From positions 246,105 to 310,104 of the forward strand of contig JACKDR010000001.1 in NCBI GenBank assembly GCA_020633495.1: a stretch of DNA of 64,000 nt, in the 5' to 3' direction. Source of the DNA: Kofleriaceae bacterium. GTDB taxonomy: Bacteria; Myxococcota_A; Polyangia; Haliangiales; Haliangiaceae. Positions 17,119 through 55,277 of the stretch are shown one piece after another (position 1 is the stretch's first letter; every line of letters starts with the position of its first letter). Both the position numbers and the translations under genes were made by a program. Under the pieces are notes generated by a model. That model was not told the origin of the DNA and made no database searches. It saw only the letters and a program-made list of their open reading frames with translations.

Positions 17119-17192
17119 CCACCGCGCGGGCACGTTTTCTCGATCGCTGAGCCCGCTTCTGGGTGATCCTGGGCGGGCTCGCGCCGTACCCG

Positions 17193-18595
17193 ATGAAGCC
17201 GTCGTCTCGCATCCGCCCCGCTCGCCCCGCCCGCGCCCACGTCGCGCGCGGACTCGGCGCCGCCGGCGTCGCGGTGGCCGTGGCCTGGGCCGCGGCCGGC
17301 TGCGTCTTCGATCCGACCGGCGCCGCGCTCGGTGGCGGCGTCGGCGACGGCGGCGTCATCGGCGACGATCAGCCGATCCCCGACGGCGCCGTCGATCCGG
17401 TGTGCGGCTGCGCGCTCGGCTGCGGCGACGACGGCGTGACCTGCCTGGCGTTCGATCCGTCGAACCTCGACGATCTCACCGCGCTCGACGGCGTCACCAC
17501 CGACCTCGTGCTCGCCGGCGGCACCTACCTGCTCGACACCAGCGCGCAGCAGCTGGCCGATCCGGACGGCGTGGTCGTCGACGGCCTGCGGTTCGTGCCG
17601 CTCGACGACGGCGGCCCCGGCCTGCTGGTGCTGGCCGTGGCACGGCTCGAGATCGCCGCCGACGCGACCCTGCGCGCGGTCGGCGATCGGGCGCTGCTGC
17701 TGCTCAGCCGCGACCAGATCACCGTCGCCGGCACGATCGACGTCGCCGGCGGCTGCGAGGTCGACCCCGCGACGCCCGGCCGCGACCGGGTGTGGTGCGG
17801 CGGCCCCGGCGCCGGCGACGGCGGCCACCGCGACGGCGGCAACGGCCGCACCGGCGCCACCGGGTGCGCGCCGGCGGCAGCGGCGACGCTGGCTCGACCA
17901 CGCCCGAGCACGGCGGCGGCGGCGGCGGCTTCGGCACCCCCGGCGGCGACGGCGGCGGCGTCGACGGCATCGGCGGCGACAGCGAGGGCGGCGGCCGCTG
18001 CGGCGCCGACACCCTGGAGCCGCTGCAGGGCGGCTCGGGCGGCGGGGTCGCCGGCTACCGCGCCAACAGCGGCGACGACAACCGCACCGCCGGCGGCGGC
18101 GGCGGCGGCGGGCTGCAGCTGACCTCGACGATCGCGATCGTCGTCACCGGCGTGATCGACGCCTCGGGCGAGGGCGGCGCCGGCACCGCGCAGGCGTCGA
18201 CGTACACCCCGCCCGGCACCGACGGCGGCGGCGGCGGCGGCGCCGGCGGCGGCGTCCTACTCGAGGCGCCCGCGGTGACGCTGACCGACGAGGCCATCGT
18301 CGTCGCCAACGGCGGCGGCGGCGGCGCCGGCGTCACGATCGATCGCCACGGCTCGCGCGGCCTGCGCAGCCACATCCGCGCGCCGGGTGGCCTCAACGAC
18401 GACGGCACCGGCGGCGGCCTCGGCGCGGTCGGCGACGGCGTCGACGAGGGCGCGACCGCCGGCGCGGCGCCCGGCGACGGCGGCTCGGGCGGCGGCGGCG
18501 GCGCCGGCCGCGTCGTCGTGCGCGCGGCGGCGCCCACCCTCGGCGGCGTGGTGTCGCCGGCGGCGACCGCGCGCACGCTCGAGCCGCTGCCCTGA
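17193..18595 (+). CDS. Secreted Gly-rich repeat lipoprotein, reading frame interrupted near 17862-17870 (frameshift or sequencing error)
   Basis: Frame of ORF 17163..18122 is protein-like from MKPSSRIRP...AVAWAAAGC (lipobox) to ...DGGNGRTGATG. From ~17865 the coding signal continues in the frame of ORF 17402..18595 (AGGSGDAGSTTPEHGGGGGGFGTPGGDGGG...ANGGGGGAGVTIDRHG...GGSGGGGGAGRVVVRAAAPTLGGV). The upstream part of that second frame is R-rich junk. Confidence 0.4.
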
Positions 18596-30135: not shown

Positions 30136-31206
30136 ATGAAGCTCGCCGTCACGATCTGTCTCGCCGCCGCGCTGGTCGCCGCTCCCACCGCGGCCCGCGC
30201 CCAGGACGCCAAGAAGGGCGCCGCCGAGCTGCTGTTCAAGGATGGCCAGCAGCTGCTCGCCGACGGCAAGACCGCCGAGGCCTGCGGCAAGTTCGAGGAG
30301 AGCCAGCGCCTCGATCCCGCGATCGGCACGCTGCTCAACCTGGCCCGCTGCTACGAGCTCGACGGCCGGCTCGCCACCGCGTGGCAGACCTACCTGGCCG
30401 CCGAGAAGATGGCGCGGGTCGGCAAGGACAAGAAGCGGGCGAACGCGGCCAAGGACCTGGCCGGCAAGCTCGAGGGCCGGCTGCCCAAGCTGATCATCTC
30501 GGTCACCGACCGGCCGGCCGGGCTCGCGGTCCAGGACGGCGGCGTCGCGTTCGATCTCGGCCTGCTCGATCTGCCGGTGCCGGTCGATCCCGGGCCGCAT
30601 CGCATCGAGGCCACCGCGCCCGGCTACCAGCCGTTCACCACCGAGGTCGACCTGCCCGAGGGCCAGGCCGTCACCGTGACGGTGTCGCTGTCGAAGGCCG
30701 CCGAGGTCAAGGTCAAGGTCGAGCCGACGCTGACCACCGACACCACCAAGGGCGACGGCAAGGACGGCGGCAAGGACGCGCGCCCGCCGCCGCCCCCGCC
30801 CGACGACGACGACGACGAGATCATCGACGACGACGCCACCGCGGGATCGCCGGGCCGCGGCCGTCGCATCCTCGGCCTGTCGGTCGGCGCCGCCGGCGTC
30901 GTGGCGTTCGGCGCCGCGACCTACCTGGGGCTCGCCGCCAAGGGCGACTACGACGGCGCCTTCGACGACGGCCACTGCAACAACGACACCCTGGTCTGCG
31001 ACCCCACCGGCCAGCAGATCACCGACGACGCCCGCGGCAAGGCCAACGTCGCGACCATCATCGGCGGCGTCGGGCTGGCCGCGGCGGCCGCCGGCCTGGT
31101 CCTGTACCTGACCGCGCCGTCGGGCAGCGACGTCGCCGAGCACGCCTACGTCGTGCCGGTCGTCGGCGGCGACGCGATCGGCATCGCGTTCGGAGGTCGG
31201 CTGTGA
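30136..31206 (+). CDS. Secreted protein with TPR-like N-terminal region, PEGA-like domain and C-terminal membrane anchor
   Basis: ATG at 30136 with GGAGGG SD. Signal MKLAVTICLAAALVAAPTAARAQDA. PEGA-like block PGPHRIEATAPGYQPFTTEVDLPEGQAVTVTVSL. PPPPPPDDDDDEIIDDD linker. Hydrophobic C-terminal segment. Confidence 0.6.
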   Translation: MKLAVTICLAAALVAAPTAARAQDAKKGAAELLFKDGQQLLADGKTAEACGKFEESQRLDPAIGTLLNLARCYELDGRLATAWQTYLAAEKMARVGKDKKRANAAKDLAGKLEGRLPKLIISVTDRPAGLAVQDGGVAFDLGLLDLPVPVDPGPHRIEATAPGYQPFTTEVDLPEGQAVTVTVSLSKAAEVKVKVEPTLTTDTTKGDGKDGGKDARPPPPPPDDDDDEIIDDDATAGSPGRGRRILGLSVGAAGVVAFGAATYLGLAAKGDYDGAFDDGHCNNDTLVCDPTGQQITDDARGKANVATIIGGVGLAAAAAGLVLYLTAPSGSDVAEHAYVVPVVGGDAIGIAFGGRL

Positions 31207-31964
31207 ACCGCGCCCTGTGGATGACCACCCTGATCGTCGCGAGCGTGGCGATCGCCGCGGCCGCGGCAGGCTGCGCCCAGATCTTCGGGCTCGACGAGAC
31301 CCACTCCGGCACCGGCGATCCGATCGACGGCTCGGTCGACGGGCCGGCGGCGCCCGACGCCCGCACCGGCGTGTGCAGCCCGGTCCTGCAGGACGGCTGC
31401 GACTCGCCCAACGTCTGCGACATCGACTACGCCGCCGGTGGACCGGCGTACTGCCGCCTCGGCAACACCCGCCCGGCGCTGTCGCCGTGCGCCCAGAACG
31501 AGGACTGCGGCGGCGGCACGACCTGCGTCGGGGGCGCGTGCCGCAGCTTCTGCGACGCCTCGCACCCCTGCACGGGCTCCGAGAACGACTGCCACCTCGA
31601 CGACTACTCGGCCCAGATCTGCGACACGGTGTGCGATCTACGCGCGCCCGACACCGGCGGCTGTCCGTCCGGCATGCACTGCGCCCTGACCATTTCGCCG
31701 AGCAACCCGGACCAGTTCGGCGCGTTCTGCAACCCCGGCAGCGGCGGCACCCTCGGGATCGGGGCCGAGTGCTCGAGCAACCCCGAGGGCTGCCGCAACG
31801 GGGCGCTGTGCCTGTCGACCGACGGCACCAGCTTCACCTGCCTGCAGCTCTGCTACACCGACCTGGCCTCGAACTGCACCGCGCCGCAGCAGTGCCTGCC
31901 GCTCGGCTCGCAGACCGCCCAGGCCGAGTTCCACGGCCACTCGCTCGGCGCCTGCGCGCAGTAG
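31203..31964 (+). CDS. Cys-rich secreted lipoprotein (about 28 Cys in ~250 aa)
   Basis: GTG at 31203 overlaps the upstream stop (GTGA), with GGAGG six nt upstream. VNRALWMTTLIVASVAIAAAAAGC lipobox. Repeated C..C..C patterns (GVCSPVLQDGCDSPNVCD..., CRSFCDASHPCTGSENDCH...). Confidence 0.55.
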   Translation: MNRALWMTTLIVASVAIAAAAAGCAQIFGLDETHSGTGDPIDGSVDGPAAPDARTGVCSPVLQDGCDSPNVCDIDYAAGGPAYCRLGNTRPALSPCAQNEDCGGGTTCVGGACRSFCDASHPCTGSENDCHLDDYSAQICDTVCDLRAPDTGGCPSGMHCALTISPSNPDQFGAFCNPGSGGTLGIGAECSSNPEGCRNGALCLSTDGTSFTCLQLCYTDLASNCTAPQQCLPLGSQTAQAEFHGHSLGACAQ

Positions 31965-31993: not shown

Positions 31994-33512
31994 CTACTCG
32001 CGGCTGCCGAAGATGTCGTCGCCGCCGCCGGGCTTGGTCTTGGTCGTCTTGGTCGTCTTGGTCGTCTTGTGGGACGACTTGCTCGACGACTTGCTCGACG
32101 ACTTGCTCGACGAGCCGTCGTCGGTGGTCGCGGTCGCGGCCGCCGCGTCCGGCGCCACGCCGGCGTCGATCGCGACGGCGACCGCCGCCGCCGCGTCAGG
32201 CGGCGCCGCCGCGGTCTCGACCCCGGCGTCGACGGCCACCGCCGCCGCGGTTCCGGACGGCCCCTCGGGGCCCGGATCGGTGGCGCCGCTGCCCGGATCG
32301 CTCGCCGCCGGCGTCGACGCGCCCGCGCCGCCGCCGCCGCCCTTGCCGCCGCCGACCACGACCACCGTCGCCGCGATCGCGCCGCCGGCGACCACGACGG
32401 CGCCGATGATCAGCCCGAGCTTGCTCTTCTTCGGCGCGGCCATCGCGGTGCCGGTCATGACCTGCGCCGCGGTGCCGGTCACGCTGGACGGCCCGGGGTG
32501 GTACGACGGGTGCTGCGACGGCGGCGGCGTGTGGTAGCCGGGCACCGGCGTCGACGGCGACGACGGCATCGCCATCGTCGGCACGCTGGCGGCGCGCGCC
32601 ACGCCGGGGCGCACGCCCAGGGTCCGCGCGCAGCGCTCCGCGATCGCCGCCGCGGTCGCCGGATCGCTGGCGTACGGCACCAGCGCCGCCGCCAGCTCGG
32701 CGACGTTCTGGGTCCGCTGCTCGGGCTCCTTCTCGAGGCACCGCGCCACGACCACGTCGAGGCCGCCGGGCAGCGGCACCTGCAGCGGCGGCAGCGGATC
32801 CATCGCGACCTTGAGGCACATCTCGCTGAAGGCCTCGGACTCGAAGGGGCGGCGCCCGCCCAGGATCTCGTAGATCACGACCCCGAGCGACCACACGTCG
32901 GAGCGGGCGTCGACGGTGCGGGTCGAGCGCATCTGCTCCGGCGACATGTACGCCGGCGTGCCCATGACCGCCTGGGTCCGGGTCAGGCCGGCGTCGACGG
33001 TCATCGGCGCCTTGGAGATGCCGAAGTCGAGGACCTTGAGCAGCAGCGAGCCGTCGCGACGCCGGGTCACGAAGAAGTTCGACGGCTTGATGTCGCGATG
33101 GACGATGCCCAGCGAGTGCGCCTCGGCCAGGCCGTCGCACGCCTGCAGCATCAGGTCGGCGGCGACCGCGGGGTTGAACGGCCCGTAGTGGCGCAGCATC
33201 GCGCCCAGGTCGCCGCCGTCGAGGTACTCCATCACCATGTAGGGCGCGCCGTCGGGCAGCGTGCCGACGTCGATGACCCGGGCGACGTGCTCGCTCTTGA
33301 GCTTGACCGCCGCCTGGGCCTCGCGCAGGAAGCGCTGCACCACCTCGACGTTGCCGAGCACCTGCGGCAGCAGGAACTTGATGGCCACCGGCTGGTCGAG
33401 CTGGAGGTGGTGGGCCTTGGCGACCACGCCCATGCCGCCCTCGCCCAGCACGCTCTCGATCCGGTACTTGCCCAGCAGGATCGTGCCCGGGGCCGGCGCG
33501 CCGTGCGTCATC
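31994..33512 (-). CDS. Ser/Thr protein kinase with TM segment and low-complexity C-terminal tail
   Basis: Start MTHGAPAPGTILLGKYRI at 33512 with GGAGG SD. Hanks motifs GEGGMGVV, VAIK, HRDIKPSN, DFG, GTPAYMSPE. Tail SSSKSSSKSSSKSSHKTTKTTKTTKTKPGGG, from 12-bp tandem repeats near 32030..32110. Confidence 0.85.
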
Positions 33513-33601
33513 GAGAGACCTCCACCGGTTGACGCTAGCCGATGCGCCGCGGCGCGGCAACGGCCGCGGCGGCCGGGGTGGTACCGTCCCGCCAGCGTGT
33601 G

Positions 33602-34717
33602 ATGACCGACACCGCGCCCGCCACCGAGCTCGACCCCGGCGTCGAGCTGCTGCCCGACGTCCCCATCCCCGGCCCGGACGCCGACGCCCTCGGGCGCGGC
33701 CCGGTCGCGGCCCGCCTGGTCGAGCTGGCCTGCGCCCAGCCGGTCGAGCAGCCCCGGGTCGTGGCCCTCGTCGCCAGCGCCGGCGCCGGCAAGACCTCGG
33801 TGCTGCGCCTGGTCGCCGCGCGCCTCGACGGCCGGGGCGACTGCGGCGCGGTCCACCTCGACGCCGCCGACCACGCCACCGGCGAGGCCCTGCGCACCGC
33901 GCTGGTCGAGCAACTGCTGGCGTTCTTCACCGCCGCCGGCGTCGTCGAAGCCAAGGACGCGGTGCGCGACAAGCTGGCCAGGCACGGCACGGTGGTGTCG
34001 GGGGTGGCGCGGCTCGCCGGCGTCAAGGTCGACGTCGGCACCGCGCTGCGCCGGTCGTCGCAGGAGGCGGTCGACGAGATCGCCGGCCTGACCCACGCGG
34101 TCGGCCGCCGGCTCGCGATCGTGATCGACCACCTCGACCGGATGGCGATCGACGAGGTGGCCGCGGCGCTGGCAGCGCTGCGGCCCTACGCGACGCTGCC
34201 GTACGTCACGATCGTGCTCGCGATCGATCGCCGCGCCACGCGCCTCCGGCTCGCCGCCCGGGGCGGCGGCGAGGCGCTCGACCGGCTGGTCGGCGTCGAG
34301 CTCGCCGTGCCCCCGGCCGATCCGCGGCGGCTGGCGCGGCTGGTCGGCCGCGGCCTGGCCCGGGCCAGCAACCGCCTCGATCGCGACCTCGACGCCGCGC
34401 TCGCGCTGTTCGATCCCGACGGCGACGATCCCGTCGCGCTCGCGCTGCTCGACACCCCGCGGGACGCCCTGCGCGTGGTCAACGCGCTGACCGCCGCGCT
34501 GCCGCTGATCGCGCCTGACGTCGACCTGCGCGATGCCTGCCTCGAGCTCGTGCTACGGCTGCTGGTCCCCGAGCTCGACACGCCGCGCCTCGACGCTGAT
34601 CGCCGGCGCCACCCCGCCGGGCGCGCCGCGGCGCGCGCCGAGCTGATCCCGCTGGTCGCCGCCAGCCCGCGAGCCGCCGCCGCATGCCACGCGCTGCGCG
34701 CGCTGCTGGGAGGCTGA
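33602..34717 (+). CDS. KAP-family P-loop NTPase (soluble, no TM insertion)
   Basis: ATG at 33602 (MTDTAPATELD). KAP N-terminal signature DADALGRGPVAARLVELACAQPVEQPRVVALVASAGAGKTSVLRLV. Walker B-like LAIVIDHLDR. Stop lies 1 nt before the next gene's GTG. Confidence 0.65.
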   Translation: MTDTAPATELDPGVELLPDVPIPGPDADALGRGPVAARLVELACAQPVEQPRVVALVASAGAGKTSVLRLVAARLDGRGDCGAVHLDAADHATGEALRTALVEQLLAFFTAAGVVEAKDAVRDKLARHGTVVSGVARLAGVKVDVGTALRRSSQEAVDEIAGLTHAVGRRLAIVIDHLDRMAIDEVAAALAALRPYATLPYVTIVLAIDRRATRLRLAARGGGEALDRLVGVELAVPPADPRRLARLVGRGLARASNRLDRDLDAALALFDPDGDDPVALALLDTPRDALRVVNALTAALPLIAPDVDLRDACLELVLRLLVPELDTPRLDADRRRHPAGRAAARAELIPLVAASPRAAAACHALRALLGG

Positions 34718-34718
34718 G

Positions 34719-36370
34719 GTGGACGTCGCCGCCTTCAACCAGGCGAGCGCCCAGATCGCGCTCGGCATCCTGGCGCTGTGCGCCGCGATGTTCGCGCTGG
34801 CGTGGGCGCTCGACCGCCGCCCCGCCGACGGCCTGTTCGCGATCCAGGCGGTCGGCGCGGCGATCGCGTTCCCCGGCCTGCCGCTCGGCTTCGCCGCACC
34901 GTTCGGCCGGCTCGAGCTGCCGCTCAACCTCGCGGTCACCGCGCTGACCGCGGCCGGCGCGGTCGAGTTCACGCGCGTCCACCTCGGCCGCGCCGCGCCG
35001 CCGCGGCTGGTCCGGGCCGCGACCCTGGCCGCGCTCGTGCTGATCGCGGTGGTCACCGCGGCGGGACCGTCGACGCGGATCGCCGCCGCGACCTCGATGG
35101 TGGTGAGCTGGATGTGCATCGTCTACGCGATCGTCGCGCACCGTCCGTACCTGCGCGGGCCGCGCGCGGTCGACGCCTGGGTGCTCCTGGCGGCGTGGAA
35201 CCTGGTGGCGTTGGGCAGCGCGCCGCGCACGCTGCGCTTCCTCGACCTCGCCGACCTCGGCCACGGCATCGATCCGCTGCCGCTGGCGGCCGCGATGTTC
35301 GCCGCGCTGCACGCGTTCGTGCTGGTCGGCGAGCGGGTCCGCGCCCAGCGCACCGCCGAGGCGCTCGGCCACAGCCTCGGCCACAAGCTGGCCACGATCG
35401 AGGCCCAGGCCCGCGAGCTCGAGGCGCTCGACGCCGAGCTGCGACGCCAGATCCGCAAGCGCGCCGAGGACCTCGCCGCCGGCGCCGGTCGCCTGCTCGC
35501 CGCGCTGCGCGGCCCACCGCAGGGGCCGCCGGCGATCGGCGAGACGATCGACGGCCGCTACCGGCTCGAGGCGCTGCTCGGCAAGGGCGGCATGGGCGTG
35601 GTCTACGCCGCGCGCGCCGGCGACGTCGCGCCGGTCGCGCTCAAGCTCCTGCGCACGGTGCCGGACGCCGCCGACGCGGCACGGTTCGCCCGCGAGGCGC
35701 GCCTGGCCGCCCAGGTCCGCCACCCCAACGTCGTGCGGCTGCACGACCTCGGGCTCACCGACGACGGCCTGATGTTCCTGGTGCTCGAGCTGGTCGACGG
35801 CCCGTCGCTGGGCGAGCTGGCGCCGACGACCTCGCCAGCCCAGGCGCTGGCGATCGCGGGCGGCATCGCCGACGGCCTCGCCGCGATCCACGAGCTCGGC
35901 ATCGTCCATCGCGACCTGAAGCCGTCGAACGTGCTGGTCGCCCGCGGCGTCACGCCCAAGATCACCGACTTCGGGATCGCGGCGCTCGGCGACCGGCAGC
36001 GCCTGCTCGACACCCAGTCGACCGCGGCGTCGCAGCTGGCGGCGATCACGGACACCCGCGAGGCGCTGGGCACGCCGCTGTACATGGCGCCCGAGCAGGC
36101 GCGCCTCGGCGTCGAGCCGGCGACCTCGGCCGACGTCTTCGCGCTCGGGCTGGTGCTGTTCGAGCTGCTGGTCGGGCGCCGGGCGTTCACGGCGCCGCCG
36201 GTGTTCGCACCGGCCGAGCTCGACGCCAGCGCCCGCGACGAGCTCCGGGCGCGGGCCGGCGACGACGTCGCCGCGACGATCGTCGCGTGCCTGGCGCTGG
36301 CGCCGGCCGCGCGCCGACCGCGGCGCGGGTCGCCGAGCAGCTGGCCGCGGCCGCCGCGCGACGCGCCTGA
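34719..36370 (+). CDS. Membrane Ser/Thr protein kinase with N-terminal multi-TM sensor-like domain; apparent frameshift near 36310-36316
   Basis: GTG at 34719 (GGGAGG SD). Six or seven hydrophobic segments (FNQASAQIALGILALCAAMFALAWAL...). Coiled-coil linker. Kinase GKGGMGVVY...VALK...HRDLKPSN...DFG...GTPLYMAPE. The last ~20 aa (PTAARVAEQLAAAAARRA, stop 36368..36370) continue in the +2 frame of ORF 34778..36370. Confidence 0.7.
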
Positions 36371-36399: not shown

Positions 36400-38067
36400 T
36401 CAGGGCGCGGCGGCGAGGTCGCCGCGCACGACGACGAAGCCGTCGCGGCTCGACACGCCTGGGTTGGCGACCGTCGCGCCGGCGATCGTCGGCATCGGCA
36501 CGGCGCCGATGACGTCGTCGATCATCGGGCCCATCAGGCCGAACAGCGTGCCGACCAGATCCTCGAGCTGGGGCCCGGTGAACGGCGGCTGGTCGGCGGC
36601 CTGGGTCAGGACCTGGGCGAAGACCTCGGGCGCGCCCAGCGCCAGCCGGATGCGGTCGCCGGGCTCGGCGTCGAGCGTGGTCGCCAGCGACAGCGCGATC
36701 GTCGCGACCTCGACGCCGTCGGCGTCGCGGAGGTGGAGGATCGCGTCGCCGATCATGACCCGGAGCCCGCCCTCGGGCCCGACCGTGACCGTCGGCGGCA
36801 GCGCCATCGCGACGTCGACGCGGCGGGCGCGATCGCCGAGCACCAGCTGCAGCGGGTGGCCGCGCTCGAGATCGACGCCGAGGTCGAGCGCGCCGCTGGC
36901 CCACATGCCGGCGAACGCCTGGTTGAGGGTGTCGTCGGCGAGCGCGACGCCGAAGCCGCCGTCGGCGCCCATCATGCCGGCGCTGGCCCGCGCCGGGCTC
37001 GCCAGGTAGACCGCGCCGTCGCCGCCGGCGACGCCGAGCGTGCCGTCGAGCGCGACGAACGCGCCACCGGCGTCGATCGTCACGGTGGTGGGCCGGACCT
37101 GGACGCTGACGTCGCGGCCCAGCGCCGGGACCACGAACGCCCGCGAGGTGAGGTCGGCGAGCGTCGCCTCGACCAGGCCGGGGACCGCGTCGGCGATCGC
37201 GCCCTCGATGGCCTCCTCGACCTTGCGCTCGATCGTGCCCGAGAACAGGTCGAAGACGGCGTCGGGCACGCCGCTGGCGTCGACGTCGAGGTTGTCGATC
37301 TGGACCGACAGCCCGGCGATCGCGGCGTGGAGGTCACCGCCGGTGACGCCGAGCCCGAGGTCGCCGGTGACGCGGACCTGATCGGCGCGGACGGTGACGT
37401 GCGACGAGCCGCCCAGGCACGCCAGCTTGTAGTCGGCGCGCAGGTCGATGACGACGTCGTCGATGCGGACGCCGGTGGCCAGGGCGCCGGGCACCGGGGC
37501 CAGGCTGACCGCGACGTCGGACTTCTGCAGGTCGAGGAAGCTGACGTCGACGCCCAGGCAGCTGCCACCGGTCGAGTAGATCGGGTTGAGGGCGCGCGCG
37601 GTGGCGGCCAGGTCCATGCCGTCGACGGTGTCGCCGACGATCTCGCCGACGGTGTGCAGCGCGGCGGGGCCGACGCGGGCGGCCAGGGCGTCGCCGACCG
37701 GGGTCGCGACCGGCACCAGCTCGCCCGCCAGCACGGCGCGGACGTCGCGGGTCTGGTTGCCGGCGGCGTCGGTGGCCAGGGTCTCGATGACGTCGATGCC
37801 AGCGCCGACCTCGACCGTCGCCGCGAAGCTGCCGTCGGCGGCGACCGGTGCCTCGACGCCGGCGACGGTGACCCGCACCGTGCCGCCGTCGTCGCGGACC
37901 TGGCCGGTGACCGTGACCGTGGTGCCGTCGGCGATCGAGCCGCGCACCGGCGACGTCACCACCAGCTCCGGCGCGGTGTCGTCGCCGCCGGCGCAGGCGC
38001 CGAGCAGCGGGACCAGCGCGAGGGGCCACAGGAGGAGGCGGGCGGCGCGAGCGGCGGATCGGGGCAT
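36400..38067 (-). CDS. Hypothetical large secreted lipoprotein
   Basis: ORF 36400..38118; start MPRSAARAARLLLWPLALVPLLGAC (lipobox). 555 aa, no recognisable catalytic motif. Confidence 0.55.
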   Translation of the reverse strand: MPRSAARAARLLLWPLALVPLLGACAGGDDTAPELVVTSPVRGSIADGTTVTVTGQVRDDGGTVRVTVAGVEAPVAADGSFAATVEVGAGIDVIETLATDAAGNQTRDVRAVLAGELVPVATPVGDALAARVGPAALHTVGEIVGDTVDGMDLAATARALNPIYSTGGSCLGVDVSFLDLQKSDVAVSLAPVPGALATGVRIDDVVIDLRADYKLACLGGSSHVTVRADQVRVTGDLGLGVTGGDLHAAIAGLSVQIDNLDVDASGVPDAVFDLFSGTIERKVEEAIEGAIADAVPGLVEATLADLTSRAFVVPALGRDVSVQVRPTTVTIDAGGAFVALDGTLGVAGGDGAVYLASPARASAGMMGADGGFGVALADDTLNQAFAGMWASGALDLGVDLERGHPLQLVLGDRARRVDVAMALPPTVTVGPEGGLRVMIGDAILHLRDADGVEVATIALSLATTLDAEPGDRIRLALGAPEVFAQVLTQAADQPPFTGPQLEDLVGTLFGLMGPMIDDVIGAVPMPTIAGATVANPGVSSRDGFVVVRGDLAAAP

Positions 38068-50290: not shown

Positions 50291-52270
50291 ATGATCCAGG
50301 CTCCGGTGTCCGCCCAGCCCGAGCTCGCCACCCCCACCGACGACCCCGACCGCGACCCGGCCGGCGCCAAGCGGGCCGGCGACTACGTCCTGGTCCGGCG
50401 CATCGGCTCGGGCGGCATGGGCGAGGTCTGGCTGGGGCGGCACGTCCTCAGCGGCTCGCTCGGCGCGGTCAAGCGGATCGGGCGCGCCGGCCAGCGCACC
50501 GCGATCGTCGGCGCCTACTTCGCGCGCGAGGGCCGCGCGATCACCCGGCTCGATCACCCGCACATCGTGCCGCTGATCGACATCGGCGCCGACTACCTGG
50601 TGACCGCGTTCGTCGACGGCGGCGACCTCGCGCGGCGGCTGCAGACGCCGATCGCGCCGGCCGCGGCGCTCCACCTGGCCCGGCAGATCGCCGACGCGCT
50701 GGTCCACGCCCACGACCGCGGCGTCGTCCACCGCGACGTCAAGCCGTCGAACGTGCTGGTCGACCGCCGCGGCAACGCCTACCTGACCGACTTCGGCCTG
50801 GCCGCGCTCGTCGACGACCCCGACGACCCGCGCCCCGGCGCCGGCACGCCGCTGTTCATGGCGCCCGAGCAGCGCCGCGGCGAGCCCGCCGGGCCCGCCG
50901 CCGACCAGTACGCGCTCGGCCGCACGCTGCTGGAGATGCTGATCGGCGGCCGCGTCCCGCTCGATCGCGAGAGCGCCCTCGCCGAGCTGCCCGCGGGCCT
51001 GCCCGACCCGCTGCGGGCGCTGCTCGAGCGCGCCACCGCGGCGCGCGCCGAGGACCGGTTCCCGTCGATGCGCGCCCTCGCCGACGCGCTGGCCGCGATC
51101 GTCGCCGATCACGCGACGCCGCCGCGGCGCCTGGCGCCGATCCTGCGCGACCCCGACGCCTTCCGCTGGGCCGCGGGCGCCCACGCCGTCGTCGACGTCG
51201 GCCCCGACGTCAGCCGCGCCGACTACCGCCTGCGCGACCTGGTCGCCGCCGGCCTGCTGCCGCGCGACGACGTCGACGAGGTCCTCGATCGCGCCGGCCT
51301 CGCCGACATCGGGTTCGCGGCGTGGGGCGATCGCGGCCGGCTCGGCGCGCTGACCGCGGCCGACGCGCTGACCCGCGCCACCGACGTCGTGATCCTGCTG
51401 CACGGCTTCGGCCACACCCGGGAGGCGTGGGGCAGCCTGGCCCGCGCGGTGTGCCGCGACAACGCGCAGGCGCTGGTGCTGGCGCCCGACGTCCACGGCT
51501 TCGGCGAGACCCGGTTCCGGCGGACCCCGACGATCGCGCAGGCCAGCATGGTCGGGCTGGCCCGCGCCGTCGACGACTGGCGCCGCCTGCTCGGGGTCGC
51601 GACGATCCCGACCGCGCTGGTCGGCCACTCGATGTGCGGGCTGGCGCTGCTGACGATCGACGACGACGGCGCCGGCCTGCGGGTGGCGCGGATCGCGGTG
51701 ACCCCGACGCTGGCGAGCCACGATCCGGCGCTGTGCCGGCGGTTCCGCAACCAGGCGCGCCTCGCGGCGACGATCGGACGCATCGCGCCGCTGCGGCGCT
51801 GGTTCATCCGGCGCTCGGCGACGCGCGTCGAGCAGAACCGCCACCTCGTGCCCGAGGCGGCCAGGCTGATGGCCGAGGAGATCGCGCGCATGCCGGGCGG
51901 CGTGCTGCACCGCGTGGCCCGCGCGATCGGCGACGCGCCGCCGCGGCTGGGCCGCCAGAGCCGGGTCGCGGTCGTGGTCGCGGTCGACGATCCGCTGATG
52001 GACTTCGCGGCGCTCGATCGCGCGATCGCCGACGTCGGGATCGCGCCCGAGCACGTCCACCGCTTCCCCGACGGCGGCCACCACCCGCACGTCGAGAGCG
52101 CCGCGCACCCCGAGTGGAGCGCGCGCAACGGCCTCGATCTGGCGCGCGTGATCGACGCGATGCTGGTGTCGGCGGCCGAGGCGCCGGTGCTCGACGGTGA
52201 CTCGCCGGTCGGGCTCGACTCGACGGTGCAGCTGCACACCACGGTCGCCGGCTCGAGCGACAGCGTCTGA
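50291..52270 (+). CDS. Ser/Thr protein kinase fused to a C-terminal alpha/beta-hydrolase fold domain
   Basis: ATG at 50291 (MIQAPVSAQPELATP). Kinase GSGGMGEVW, HRDVKPSN, DFG, GTPLFMAPE. C-terminal VVILLHGFGHTREAW...LVGHSMCGLALL (GxSxG nucleophile elbow), with Asp/His candidates downstream. Confidence 0.8.
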   Translation: MIQAPVSAQPELATPTDDPDRDPAGAKRAGDYVLVRRIGSGGMGEVWLGRHVLSGSLGAVKRIGRAGQRTAIVGAYFAREGRAITRLDHPHIVPLIDIGADYLVTAFVDGGDLARRLQTPIAPAAALHLARQIADALVHAHDRGVVHRDVKPSNVLVDRRGNAYLTDFGLAALVDDPDDPRPGAGTPLFMAPEQRRGEPAGPAADQYALGRTLLEMLIGGRVPLDRESALAELPAGLPDPLRALLERATAARAEDRFPSMRALADALAAIVADHATPPRRLAPILRDPDAFRWAAGAHAVVDVGPDVSRADYRLRDLVAAGLLPRDDVDEVLDRAGLADIGFAAWGDRGRLGALTAADALTRATDVVILLHGFGHTREAWGSLARAVCRDNAQALVLAPDVHGFGETRFRRTPTIAQASMVGLARAVDDWRRLLGVATIPTALVGHSMCGLALLTIDDDGAGLRVARIAVTPTLASHDPALCRRFRNQARLAATIGRIAPLRRWFIRRSATRVEQNRHLVPEAARLMAEEIARMPGGVLHRVARAIGDAPPRLGRQSRVAVVVAVDDPLMDFAALDRAIADVGIAPEHVHRFPDGGHHPHVESAAHPEWSARNGLDLARVIDAMLVSAAEAPVLDGDSPVGLDSTVQLHTTVAGSSDSV

Positions 52271-53307: not shown

Positions 53308-53358
53308 CCGCGGGCGCCGTCGCCGCGGCGCCCGGCATCCGGGCTACCATCGCCGCGG

Positions 53359-54702
53359 ATGAGGCAGTGGCCCGGCAACGTCGTCCGCTTCCTGGCGATC
53401 GTGCTGGTCGTGGTGGTCGGCGCGATCGCCTACGGCGTGGCGCGCCTGGCGACGCTGCTGCTGTACTGGCGCCGCGCCCGCCGCCGCGCCGCGGTGGCCC
53501 GGCTGCGCGGCCGCCTGCTGCGCTGGGCCATGACGCTGCTGGGCGCCACCTTCATCAAGCTCGGCCAGGTCCTCAGCACCCGCCCCGACCTGCTCGAGCC
53601 CGAGACGATCGACGAGCTCCGGCACCTGCAGGACCGGCTGCACGCGTTCGGCTACCGCAAGGTGCGGCGCATCATCGAGGCCGACCTCGGCGGCCGCGTC
53701 GAGGACCACTTCGCCGAGCTCGACCGCCGTCCGGTCGCCGCCGCCAGCGTCGCGCAGGTCCACCGCGGCCTCCTCCACGACGGCACCGAGGTCGCGGTCA
53801 AGGTCGTGCGCCCCGAGGTCCGCGGCACGATCGAGCGTGACGGCCGCCTGCTCCACTTCTTCGCCCGCATCGCCGAGCTGTCGCGGACCGCGCGGCTGTC
53901 GCGACCGGTCGATCACTGTCGCGAGCTCATCGACGGCATCCTGATGCAGACCGACCTGCGCGGCGAGGCCGCCCACTACGAGCGCTTCCGCGCCAACTTC
54001 GCCGGCGTCCCGGGCCTACGCTTCCCGACGGTGTTCCCGGCGCAGTCGAGCGAGCGGGTCCTGACCATGAGCTTCGAGCGCGGCCGCAAGATCGACGCGC
54101 TCGGCGCGGGCGGCCACCCCGAGCTGGCGCTGGTCACCCGCCGGACCTTCTTCAAGATGTGCTTCGAGGACGGCTTCGTCCACGCCGACCTCCACCCCGG
54201 CAACATGCTGGTCGGCGACGACGGTGACCTCGTGATCTTCGACGTCGGCCTGGTCAAGCACCTCGACGCCGAGCTGCTCTTGCAGCTGGTCGACTTCTCG
54301 CGCTGCGTCGCGATGGGCACCAGCGCCGACTTCGTCGGTCACCTGCGCCGCTTCCACACCTACATGGGCGACGTCGACTGGGACGAGGTCCAGCGCGACG
54401 CCGAGGCCTTCGTGGCCCGGTTCCGCGATCGGACCTCGGCGGAGCTGGAGATGGGCGTCTTCATCCGCGACGTCTTCGCGATCGGGCGCAAGCACAAGAT
54501 CCAGCCCCTGCCGGAGATGACGCTGATCCTGGTCGGCGTCGTCACCTCCGAGGGCATCGCCAAGATGCTCGACCCCGGCGTCAACACGTTCCACGAGATG
54601 GCCGCGTTCCTGATGCCGCTCGCGCAGCGGCTCGGGCTCGGGCCGGCCGCGCCGGCGCCCGCGCCGGGCGCGGGCGCGGTCACGACGCCCGATCCAGCCT
54701 GA
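53359..54702 (+). CDS. ABC1/UbiB-family atypical protein kinase with N-terminal TM helix (second copy in window)
   Basis: N-terminal TM FLAIVLVVVVGAIAYGVARLA. ABC1 motifs LGQVLSTRPDLLEPETIDELRHLQD, AAASVAQVHRGLLHDGTEVAVKVVRP, FVHADLHPGNMLV, IFDVG. Confidence 0.8.
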   Translation: MRQWPGNVVRFLAIVLVVVVGAIAYGVARLATLLLYWRRARRRAAVARLRGRLLRWAMTLLGATFIKLGQVLSTRPDLLEPETIDELRHLQDRLHAFGYRKVRRIIEADLGGRVEDHFAELDRRPVAAASVAQVHRGLLHDGTEVAVKVVRPEVRGTIERDGRLLHFFARIAELSRTARLSRPVDHCRELIDGILMQTDLRGEAAHYERFRANFAGVPGLRFPTVFPAQSSERVLTMSFERGRKIDALGAGGHPELALVTRRTFFKMCFEDGFVHADLHPGNMLVGDDGDLVIFDVGLVKHLDAELLLQLVDFSRCVAMGTSADFVGHLRRFHTYMGDVDWDEVQRDAEAFVARFRDRTSAELEMGVFIRDVFAIGRKHKIQPLPEMTLILVGVVTSEGIAKMLDPGVNTFHEMAAFLMPLAQRLGLGPAAPAPAPGAGAVTTPDPA

Positions 54703-54725
54703 CCGGCCGCGCCGGGTGTGCGAGG

Positions 54726-55277
54726 ATGCGCCGGCCCATGACACCGCTCTTCATCGACGGGACCGAGGAACGCGCCGCCGAGCTGCGCCGCATCGTGCCG
54801 GCGCTGCGCTTCGAGCTCGCCGGCCTCCCGGTGGGGTACTCGACCAGCGCGCCGGATCCGGCGACCCGCGCCCACGACATGGTGGTCGCCGCCGAGCACG
54901 TCGAGCCGTGCTTCGCCGAGGCCGTCGATCTCACGACGATGGAGGGCAAGAGCCTGCGGCTCGAGCTCGACTCCGAGAACGACAACCGGTTCTGCCGCTG
55001 GTTCCGCGAGACCCCGGTGCGGCTGCACCTGTGCGTCGCGCTGCGCCGCGCGCCGGGCGCCGAGATCGAGCTGTTCGGCGCCGAGTGCGAGGGCCGGATC
55101 GCCGACCAGCCCGCGGGGCCGCGGCCGTTCGGATGGGATCGCCTGTTCGTCCCCGACGGCTACACCCGCACGCTCGCCGAGCTGGCCGAGGCGCCGGGCG
55201 GCGACGATCCCGACCCGGTCGGCCTGCGCGGCCTGGTCTACGGCGATCTGGCGCGCGCGCTCGGCTTCACCGCCTGA
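54726..55277 (+). CDS. Ham1/Maf-like non-canonical NTP pyrophosphatase family protein (divergent)
   Basis: C-terminal FGWDRLFVPDGYTRTLAEL resembles the Ham1/RdgB FGYDPIFxPxGxxxTxAEM motif. N-terminus is divergent (alternative ATG at 54738). Confidence 0.45.
   Translation: MRRPMTPLFIDGTEERAAELRRIVPALRFELAGLPVGYSTSAPDPATRAHDMVVAAEHVEPCFAEAVDLTTMEGKSLRLELDSENDNRFCRWFRETPVRLHLCVALRRAPGAEIELFGAECEGRIADQPAGPRPFGWDRLFVPDGYTRTLAELAEAPGGDDPDPVGLRGLVYGDLARALGFTA

Follow-up and report, generated by a model that had tools for sequence, protein, structure and literature searches.

A 64-kb stretch of DNA from a metagenome-assembled genome (MAG) of a Kofleriaceae bacterium, hereafter the window, carries the gene for a soluble KAP-type P-loop NTPase, which is followed at once by the gene for a Ser/Thr kinase with a seven-transmembrane (7TM) N-terminal domain (kinase B) and is preceded by a divergently transcribed gene for a second Ser/Thr kinase with a transmembrane (TM) helix (kinase A). 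The adjacency of these three genes is probably a lineage-specific juxtaposition within one genome, and not a conserved system. The proteins are of known kinds, namely a KAP NTPase without TM helices, a "headless" 7TMR-DISM kinase and a PknB-like kinase, and it is their arrangement that is specific to a single genome. In the course of events that we favor, the NTPase belongs to a discrete family of minimal KAP-type AAA+-like proteins, which are soluble and vertically inherited and have neighbors that vary by lineage; the headless kinase B would have landed right behind the NTPase stop codon in this genome, with a ribosome-binding site arising in the last NTPase codons, and kinase A would be an ordinary PknB-like membrane kinase that lies upstream of the NTPase by happenstance in this sub-lineage. 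The genes and the region between the divergent pair are as follows:

31994-33511, minus strand: kinase A, a 505-aa Hanks-type, PknB-like Ser/Thr kinase with ATG at 33511; Pfam Pkinase 155 bits
33512-33601: divergent intergenic region between kinase A and the NTPase, 90 nt
33602-34717, plus strand: NTPase, 371 aa, ATG 33602 to TGA 34717, a minimal soluble KAP-type P-loop NTPase
34719-36370, plus strand: kinase B, GTG start, 550 aa after correction of a 1-nt frameshift near 36314-36316

The GC content is 72-79% across the window and ~75% in the interval 31994-36370, and owing to this high GC content long open reading frames (ORFs) crowd all frames. Real genes were told from shadow ORFs by third-position GC together with the requirement of a higher GC at first than at second codon positions, and on third-position GC three genes, kinase A, the NTPase and kinase B, were accepted within the interval.

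Conservation of the NTPase-kinase pair

The NTPase family comprises 92-98 protein clusters (~355-470 aa, 38-61% identity), all of which are single-domain, and its named members all come from Kofleriaceae or Myxococcales MAGs; no kinase fusion was found among the 92-98 members. Conservation of the pair was assessed at 26 other NTPase loci (L001-L019, L021-L024 and L026-L028; with the window locus, W, 27 in all) by ORF clustering and by tblastn, for which kinase A and each half of kinase B served as queries. Kinase B lies beside the NTPase at none of the 26, whether its TM half or its kinase half is used as the query, and kinase A is adjacent and divergent to the NTPase at one of them, L005, where the kinase domain is 84% identical. 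The only full-length orthologue of kinase B found by an exhaustive search with its TM domain is P0094 (L025; 59% identity in the TM domain), and in the MAG concerned P0094 is located on contig CAZRSQ010000018 and the NTPase orthologue (L004) on contig CAZRSQ010000025, in a different neighborhood. The original prediction had taken the tight coupling of the two genes in the window as a sign of an NTPase-gated signaling module, and had itself named a gene pair that is not conserved as its refutation; as the pair is indeed not conserved in relatives, the module inference fails and gating of kinase B by the NTPase is unsupported.

At L025:4424-5997 (plus strand), P0094 lies 3 nt behind two paralogous genes for multi-pass membrane proteins of 268 and 256 aa that match no Pfam family, and this gene group may represent the ancestral operon of the 7TM kinase; no homologues of the genes flanking P0094 were found in the window. 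A gene for a Cys-rich secreted protein of 179 aa is located 3′ of P0094.

Among the 27 loci, an immediate kinase neighbor of the NTPase is seen at W, L005 and L002 only. With a background of six kinase genes per 308 kb of loci, which corresponds to a ~4% chance per immediate neighbor, kinase neighbors are not enriched above chance (binomial P(≥2 of 26) = 0.29). Myxobacteria are described as having the largest bacterial kinomes of eukaryotic-like kinases (PMC2887360), and in such kinase-rich genomes kinase adjacency is weak functional evidence.

The junction between the NTPase and kinase B

The NTPase gene ends 1 nt before the GTG of the kinase, as originally stated, with a single G between the TGA at 34715-34717 and the GTG at 34719, and a putative ribosome-binding site precedes the latter:

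34708-34713, plus strand: predicted Shine-Dalgarno sequence GGGAGG for kinase B, within the last NTPase codons and 5 nt upstream of GTG 34719

This GGGAGG is formed by a rare glycine codon, GGA, which is used for 5 of the 643 glycines encoded by 11 genes of the window, and the equivalent position in L005 reads GGC GGC. Translational coupling between the NTPase and kinase B is plausible, and because kinase B follows directly after the NTPase stop codon and has its predicted ribosome-binding site in the end of the NTPase gene, the two are probably co-transcribed and translationally coupled in this genome, so that kinase B would be read off the NTPase mRNA through termination-reinitiation.

Some observations weigh against the view that the genes are merely juxtaposed. 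The rare codon that makes the ribosome-binding site suggests selection for expression of kinase B at the NTPase junction. The presence of kinases on both sides of the NTPase has a likelihood of ~0.04-0.2% by chance and is thus rare per gene. At L002:4978-5988 (plus strand), the divergent NTPase family member P0087 is preceded, at a distance of 12 nt, by a kinase-like gene of 336 aa; this gene reads HRALTPD and lacks the catalytic Asp and DFG, hence it likely encodes a pseudokinase. Moreover, most loci come from fragmentary MAGs, and the absence of linkage is judged from contig boundaries in a single MAG and, for the other loci, from flanks of 4-8 kb.

The corresponding alternative is a young but genuine NTPase-kinase B module, in which the NTPase would serve as scaffold, gate or substrate and either protein could control the other, the NTPase acting on kinase output through its nucleotide state or the kinase acting on the oligomerization of the NTPase. 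The 1-nt spacer and the GGGAGG built on a rare codon fit such a module, as do the intact catalytic motifs of both kinases and the arrangement in L025, where P0094 is likewise the distal, tightly coupled gene and seems to act with an upstream partner. However, the two genes ahead of P0094 encode membrane proteins that bear no relation to the NTPase, the sole MAG that shows both orthologues has them unlinked, the pair is kept at none of the other loci and a kinase is fused to the NTPase nowhere in the family, and we consider a young module unlikely. It is quite improbable that the locus is a new device altogether, which would have arisen by recent capture of a TM-less KAP NTPase into one translationally coupled operon with a headless kinase, with nucleotide-dependent oligomerization of the NTPase gating or scaffolding the kinase in a manner comparable to the kinase-linked KAP scaffold Kidins220 and with the rare-codon site as a trace of selection for the coupling. 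Were the pairing functional, it would provide a rare handle on what soluble KAP NTPases do and would tie bacterial Ser/Thr signaling to a P-loop switch. In the favored explanation, the NTPase is probably an NTP-dependent oligomeric switch, by analogy with RdrA and Cdc6; separately, the 7TM bundle of kinase B would sense a membrane-borne signal, and this signal would travel via the helix continuous with TM7 to the kinase domain.

A minimal, soluble KAP-type NTPase

The NTPase is identical to the MAG protein H6709_21805 (P0001) of Kofleriaceae bacterium at NCBI, and an alternative ATG at 33542, upstream of its start, has no support from homologues. It matches Pfam KAP_NTPase (PF07693) with 40.6 bits against a gathering cut-off of 20; AAA_16 comes second (35.0 bits, best E 4.1e-11), and the nSTAND models score under their cut-offs. 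KAP_NTPase is also matched by 32 of 32 aligned relatives (best E 1.2e-21), and the prediction that the protein belongs to KAP rather than to another STAND or AAA clade is thereby upheld. The same applies to the predicted lack of the TM insertion in this 371-aa protein, the maximal 19-residue Kyte-Doolittle value of which is 1.48, with no window ≥1.6 (the kinases reach 2.45 and 2.63). None of the two or four TM helices of the KAP type was detected by hydropathy, and the AlphaFold2 (AF2) model has a soluble hairpin instead. TM-less KAPs are known, as PifA is an accepted family member without TM helices (PMC13001434), and missing TM helices are thus no bar to KAP membership.

The AF2 model (predicted local distance difference test (pLDDT) 88.5, predicted template modeling score (pTM) 0.84) combines an ATPase core with a C-terminal half made of helices, and a long helical hairpin (H118-137/H145-167) lies between Walker A and Walker B. 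The hairpin tip, residues 131-143, is the sole low-confidence stretch of the model, yet it is highly conserved in sequence. When the PDB was searched by sequence, using the family profile, the only similarities were to the Walker A of ABC transporters and of midasin, which is uninformative. The conserved motifs are:

33773-33799, plus strand: Walker A, ASAGAGKTS; G61, G63, K64 and S66 are invariant in the family alignment
34004-34039, plus strand: conserved segment VARLAGVKVDVG, between Walker A and B, overlapping the tip of the helical hairpin
34115-34141, plus strand: Walker B, AIVIDHLDR; D176, H177, D179 and R180 are invariant in the family alignment
34454-34483, plus strand: motif TPRDALRVVN

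The KAP-style Walker B consensus is hhhhDDLDR, the second Asp of which is replaced by His throughout this family (DHxDR; DHLDR in the window), leading to the speculation that the invariant His may make the protein a slow hydrolase. The family, a compact and uncharacterized group of minimal KAP-type NTPases that is confined to Kofleriaceae/Haliangiaceae-like myxobacteria, has two hallmarks, namely the invariant DHxDR Walker B and the conserved soluble hairpin that separates the two Walker motifs.

Neighborhoods of the NTPase in other genomes

The 27 NTPase loci comprise singletons and at least three synteny groups that are unrelated to one another. In the first group, the NTPase comes after an unannotated, secreted-looking protein (c4) and a membrane protein (c1) and before DUF4112, a Zn-ribbon protein and malic enzyme; in the second, it comes after FecR, an extracytoplasmic function (ECF) sigma factor and isochorismatase and before c1 and c11, the last without a family assignment. 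The third group, which includes the window, has a thiamine pyrophosphate (TPP) enzyme, a glyoxalase, a thioesterase and a few more genes, followed by the NTPase and a secreted c20 protein. The gene downstream of the NTPase in the singleton loci encodes a pseudouridine synthase, PEGA, DUF1643, PDZ or HDOD. Within the synteny group of the window, the secreted c20 protein follows the NTPase in L005 and L018, and kinase B takes its place only in the window. Among the syntenic orthologues, conservation is lowest for the NTPase (57% versus 59-84%), and one NTPase locus per MAG was seen in the scan.

The one recurrent neighbor is c1, a membrane protein of ~225 aa with no Pfam family on record, which adjoins the NTPase gene at 10 of the 26 other loci:

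L003:7207-7875, L001:7220-7927, L011:9087-9764 and L028:3291-3974, minus strand: examples of c1, with six more loci besides

c1 has an acidic N-terminus, an invariant ARWR...QxGLKFxLHxFR and a C-terminal PEPMxxPL[AST], and with three hydrophobic peaks it is probably multi-pass. The two synteny contexts in which it adjoins the NTPase are unrelated, and its orientation is divergent at some loci and convergent at others; it could be the real partner of these soluble KAP proteins and provide them with TM helices in trans. No c1 homologue was found in the 64-kb window. The idea that the 7TM domain of kinase B is a homologous stand-in for c1 was rejected, given an hhalign probability of 0.2% and the lack of c1 in the window.

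Comparison with known systems

PifA, the F-plasmid KAP NTPase of T7 exclusion, is, like the window NTPase, a KAP-family P-loop NTPase without TM helices (PMC13001434). The PADLOC profile of PifA matches NTPase residues 18-325 (56 bits, E 6.7e-16) over profile positions 7-342 of 720. In contrast to PifA, the window NTPase is half the size, lacks the C-terminal half as well as any sensor or effector domain, and is chromosomal, in synteny with metabolic genes and off mobile elements. RdrA of RADAR (PDB 8fnt and 8fnu, the latter deposited under the title 'KAP NTPase domain-containing protein') is among the top structural matches of the NTPase at a sequence identity of 9-11%; however, RdrA has ~790 aa and comes with the deaminase RdrB, whereas the 371-aa window NTPase has no deaminase or other fixed partner. 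The Cdc6/Orc1 initiator AAA+ ATPases (PDB 1fnn and 2qby) share only 11-16% sequence identity with the NTPase, the best Pfam match of which is KAP and not Cdc6/ORC. The classical membrane-inserted KAP NTPases (Kidins220/ARMS and prokaryotic relatives), reportedly described by Aravind et al. in 2004, share with it the N-terminal D..L.R, Walker A GxGK[ST]S, Walker B hhhhDxLDR and C-terminal PR..KR..N; they differ in that the window NTPase has a soluble hairpin at the corresponding position, no TM helices and an invariant His in Walker B.

These likenesses raise the question of an anti-phage or conflict system, in which a PifA-like NTPase would sense infection and the kinase would be the effector, comparable to single-gene kinase defenses, Qat, RADAR and PifA. 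Besides the PifA match and the structural match to RdrA, there are weak matches to QatA, the PD-T4-6 kinase models score high on both kinases, and the low conservation of the NTPase among its syntenic orthologues would suit a defense gene. However, only the N-terminal half of the PifA profile is matched, the QatA matches (17-19 bits) fall far short of the NCBIfam cut-off of 600, and the PD-T4-6 matches reflect generic kinase-domain similarity. Neither QatBCD nor RdrB-like genes were found in the window flanks, no integrase, transposase, tRNA or other defense gene lies near the locus in the window, and the single locus per MAG lies in conserved synteny blocks with metabolic genes. The window neighbors of the locus, namely a TPP enzyme, a glyoxalase, thioesterases, a short-chain dehydrogenase/reductase (SDR) and GH31, belong to ordinary metabolism and are syntenic with related MAGs; a conflict- or defense-like context is not supported here, and a defense function is extremely unlikely.

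Kinase B and its frameshift

Kinase B consists of the following parts:

34725-35333, plus strand: 7TMR-DISM-type 7TM domain, residues 3-205
35277-35507, plus strand: long helix continuous with TM7, residues 187-263
35559-36314, plus strand: Ser/Thr kinase domain, residues 281-532; Pfam Pkinase 128 bits
36315-36512, plus strand: out-of-frame Arg-rich tail of the uncorrected ORF, after residue 532, with no homology

Both kinase B and kinase A have the full motif set of Hanks-type kinases (PF00069), i.e., the Gly-rich loop, the VAIK Lys, HRD, DFG and APE. The multi-helix membrane nature predicted for the N-terminal half of kinase B was confirmed by AF2 on 46 homologues (pLDDT 94.8), which gives a seven-helix bundle with TM7 extending as a helix of ~75 residues into the cytoplasm. 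An exhaustive HMMER search with the TM domain, used because a word-index search gave one fragment only, found 181 homologues, and 41 of the 46 sampled carry Pkinase. The suggestion that this domain is of the 7TMR-DISM type stands, with a proviso: 7TMR-DISM_7TM (PF07695) aligns with kinase B over almost its whole length (profile positions 11-203 of 205), but at 24.2 bits the score is under the Pfam cut-off of 29, and the assignment is owed to the homologues, 23 of 46 of which match at E<1e-3 (best E 4.2e-13). Most 7TMR-DISM-kinase homologues have ~160 extra N-terminal aa before TM1; in contrast, kinase B and P0094 are headless, as both begin at TM1 and lack an extracellular N-terminal domain of the 7TMR-DISMED type. 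P0094 starts at the same residue as kinase B, so that the GTG start is confirmed by the orthologue.

The right end of kinase B had been placed at 36370 by silently bridging a frameshift. The ORF opened at 34719 in fact runs to 36512, overlapping the convergent gene 3′ of kinase B (36400-38049, minus strand) by 113 nt, and the stop at 36370 belongs to another reading frame, which reads ...PTAARVAEQLAAAAARRA*, a normal ending of kinase subdomain XI. A tblastn alignment of P0094 (...NPPDGRPSISQLAEAVAA...) is good up to 36314 and then collapses. Adding one C to the CC run at 36314-36315 yields a 550-aa kinase B with the canonical C-terminus ...ARPTAARVAEQLAAAAARRA*, as in P0094. Since this repair restores the homologous C-terminus and removes the overlap, the frameshift is most likely a homopolymer assembly error in the MAG, with CC for CCC, and a probable assembly frameshift is thus flagged in a public MAG. 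Indels of 1 nt are common in long-read assemblies.

Alternatively, the frameshift is real, kinase B is a decaying pseudogene and the junction with the NTPase is without present function. The frameshift is present in the sequence as given, and the protein database includes this MAG's NTPase (P0001) but lacks its kinase B, which would fit annotation of the latter as frameshifted. Decay is nevertheless hard to reconcile with a single lesion, located at a CC/CCC run, that alters just the last 18 residues, with catalytic motifs that are intact and with a third-position GC of 0.97-0.99 along the whole gene (in the frame of the Arg-rich tail it drops from 0.98 to 0.58); furthermore, the contig of 662 kb suggests a long-read assembly. 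A pseudogene is therefore considered very unlikely.

Kinase A and the divergent intergenic region

The prediction of a second, divergently transcribed TM Ser/Thr kinase with a Ser/Lys/Thr-repeat tail was correct, and the features of kinase A and of the adjoining intergenic region are:

32708-33466, minus strand: kinase domain, residues 16-268, with motifs GEGGMGVV, VAIK, HRDIKPSN, DFG and SPE
32354-32410, minus strand: single TM helix, residues 368-386, 19-residue Kyte-Doolittle 2.63
32033-32113, minus strand: Ser/Lys/Thr repeat tail (SSSK/TTK), SSSKSSSKSSSKSSHKTTKTTKTTKTK, detected by Tandem Repeats Finder (TRF)
33582-33587, plus strand: -10-like TACCGT in the adjoining intergenic region, 14 nt upstream of the NTPase ATG

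The ectodomain is of low complexity, and the DNA encoding the tail is made up of tandem repeats with period 12 (3.4 copies) and period 9 (3.7 copies), both with 100% matches in TRF. A gene for a Cys-rich, secreted, lipoprotein-like protein (~250 aa, no Pfam match) lies on the opposite strand just past the 3′ end of kinase A both in the window (31203-31964, plus strand) and in L005 (5597-6331, plus strand); L018 has neither this gene nor kinase A, and the two may travel together.

Kinase A and the NTPase are separated by an intergenic region of 90 nt rather than the 89 bp given originally. A scan for sigma-70 promoter and terminator consensus sequences found nothing in this region of ~75% GC. 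TAnnnT elements (GGTACCGTC, GGTATCGTC and GCTACCAC) are present 10-60 nt upstream of the NTPase start codon across synteny groups, in the window as well as in L001, L003-L005, L009-L014, L018 and L028, and the NTPase gene would accordingly be a candidate for having its own promoter. These elements resemble -10 boxes with a very short leader and were missed by the sigma-70 consensus scan. The intergenic regions of the window and L005 show no convincing alignment beyond the common GGTACCGTC.

Other features of the window

No Rfam families and no tRNAs were found in the window. A third Ser/Thr kinase gene is located at 50303-52270 on the plus strand (kinase domain ~50336-51118), which illustrates the kinase density of this genome. 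Further pairs of window genes overlap on the same strand in different frames, for example 17151-18122 with 17843-18595 and 53350-54702 with 54639-55277.

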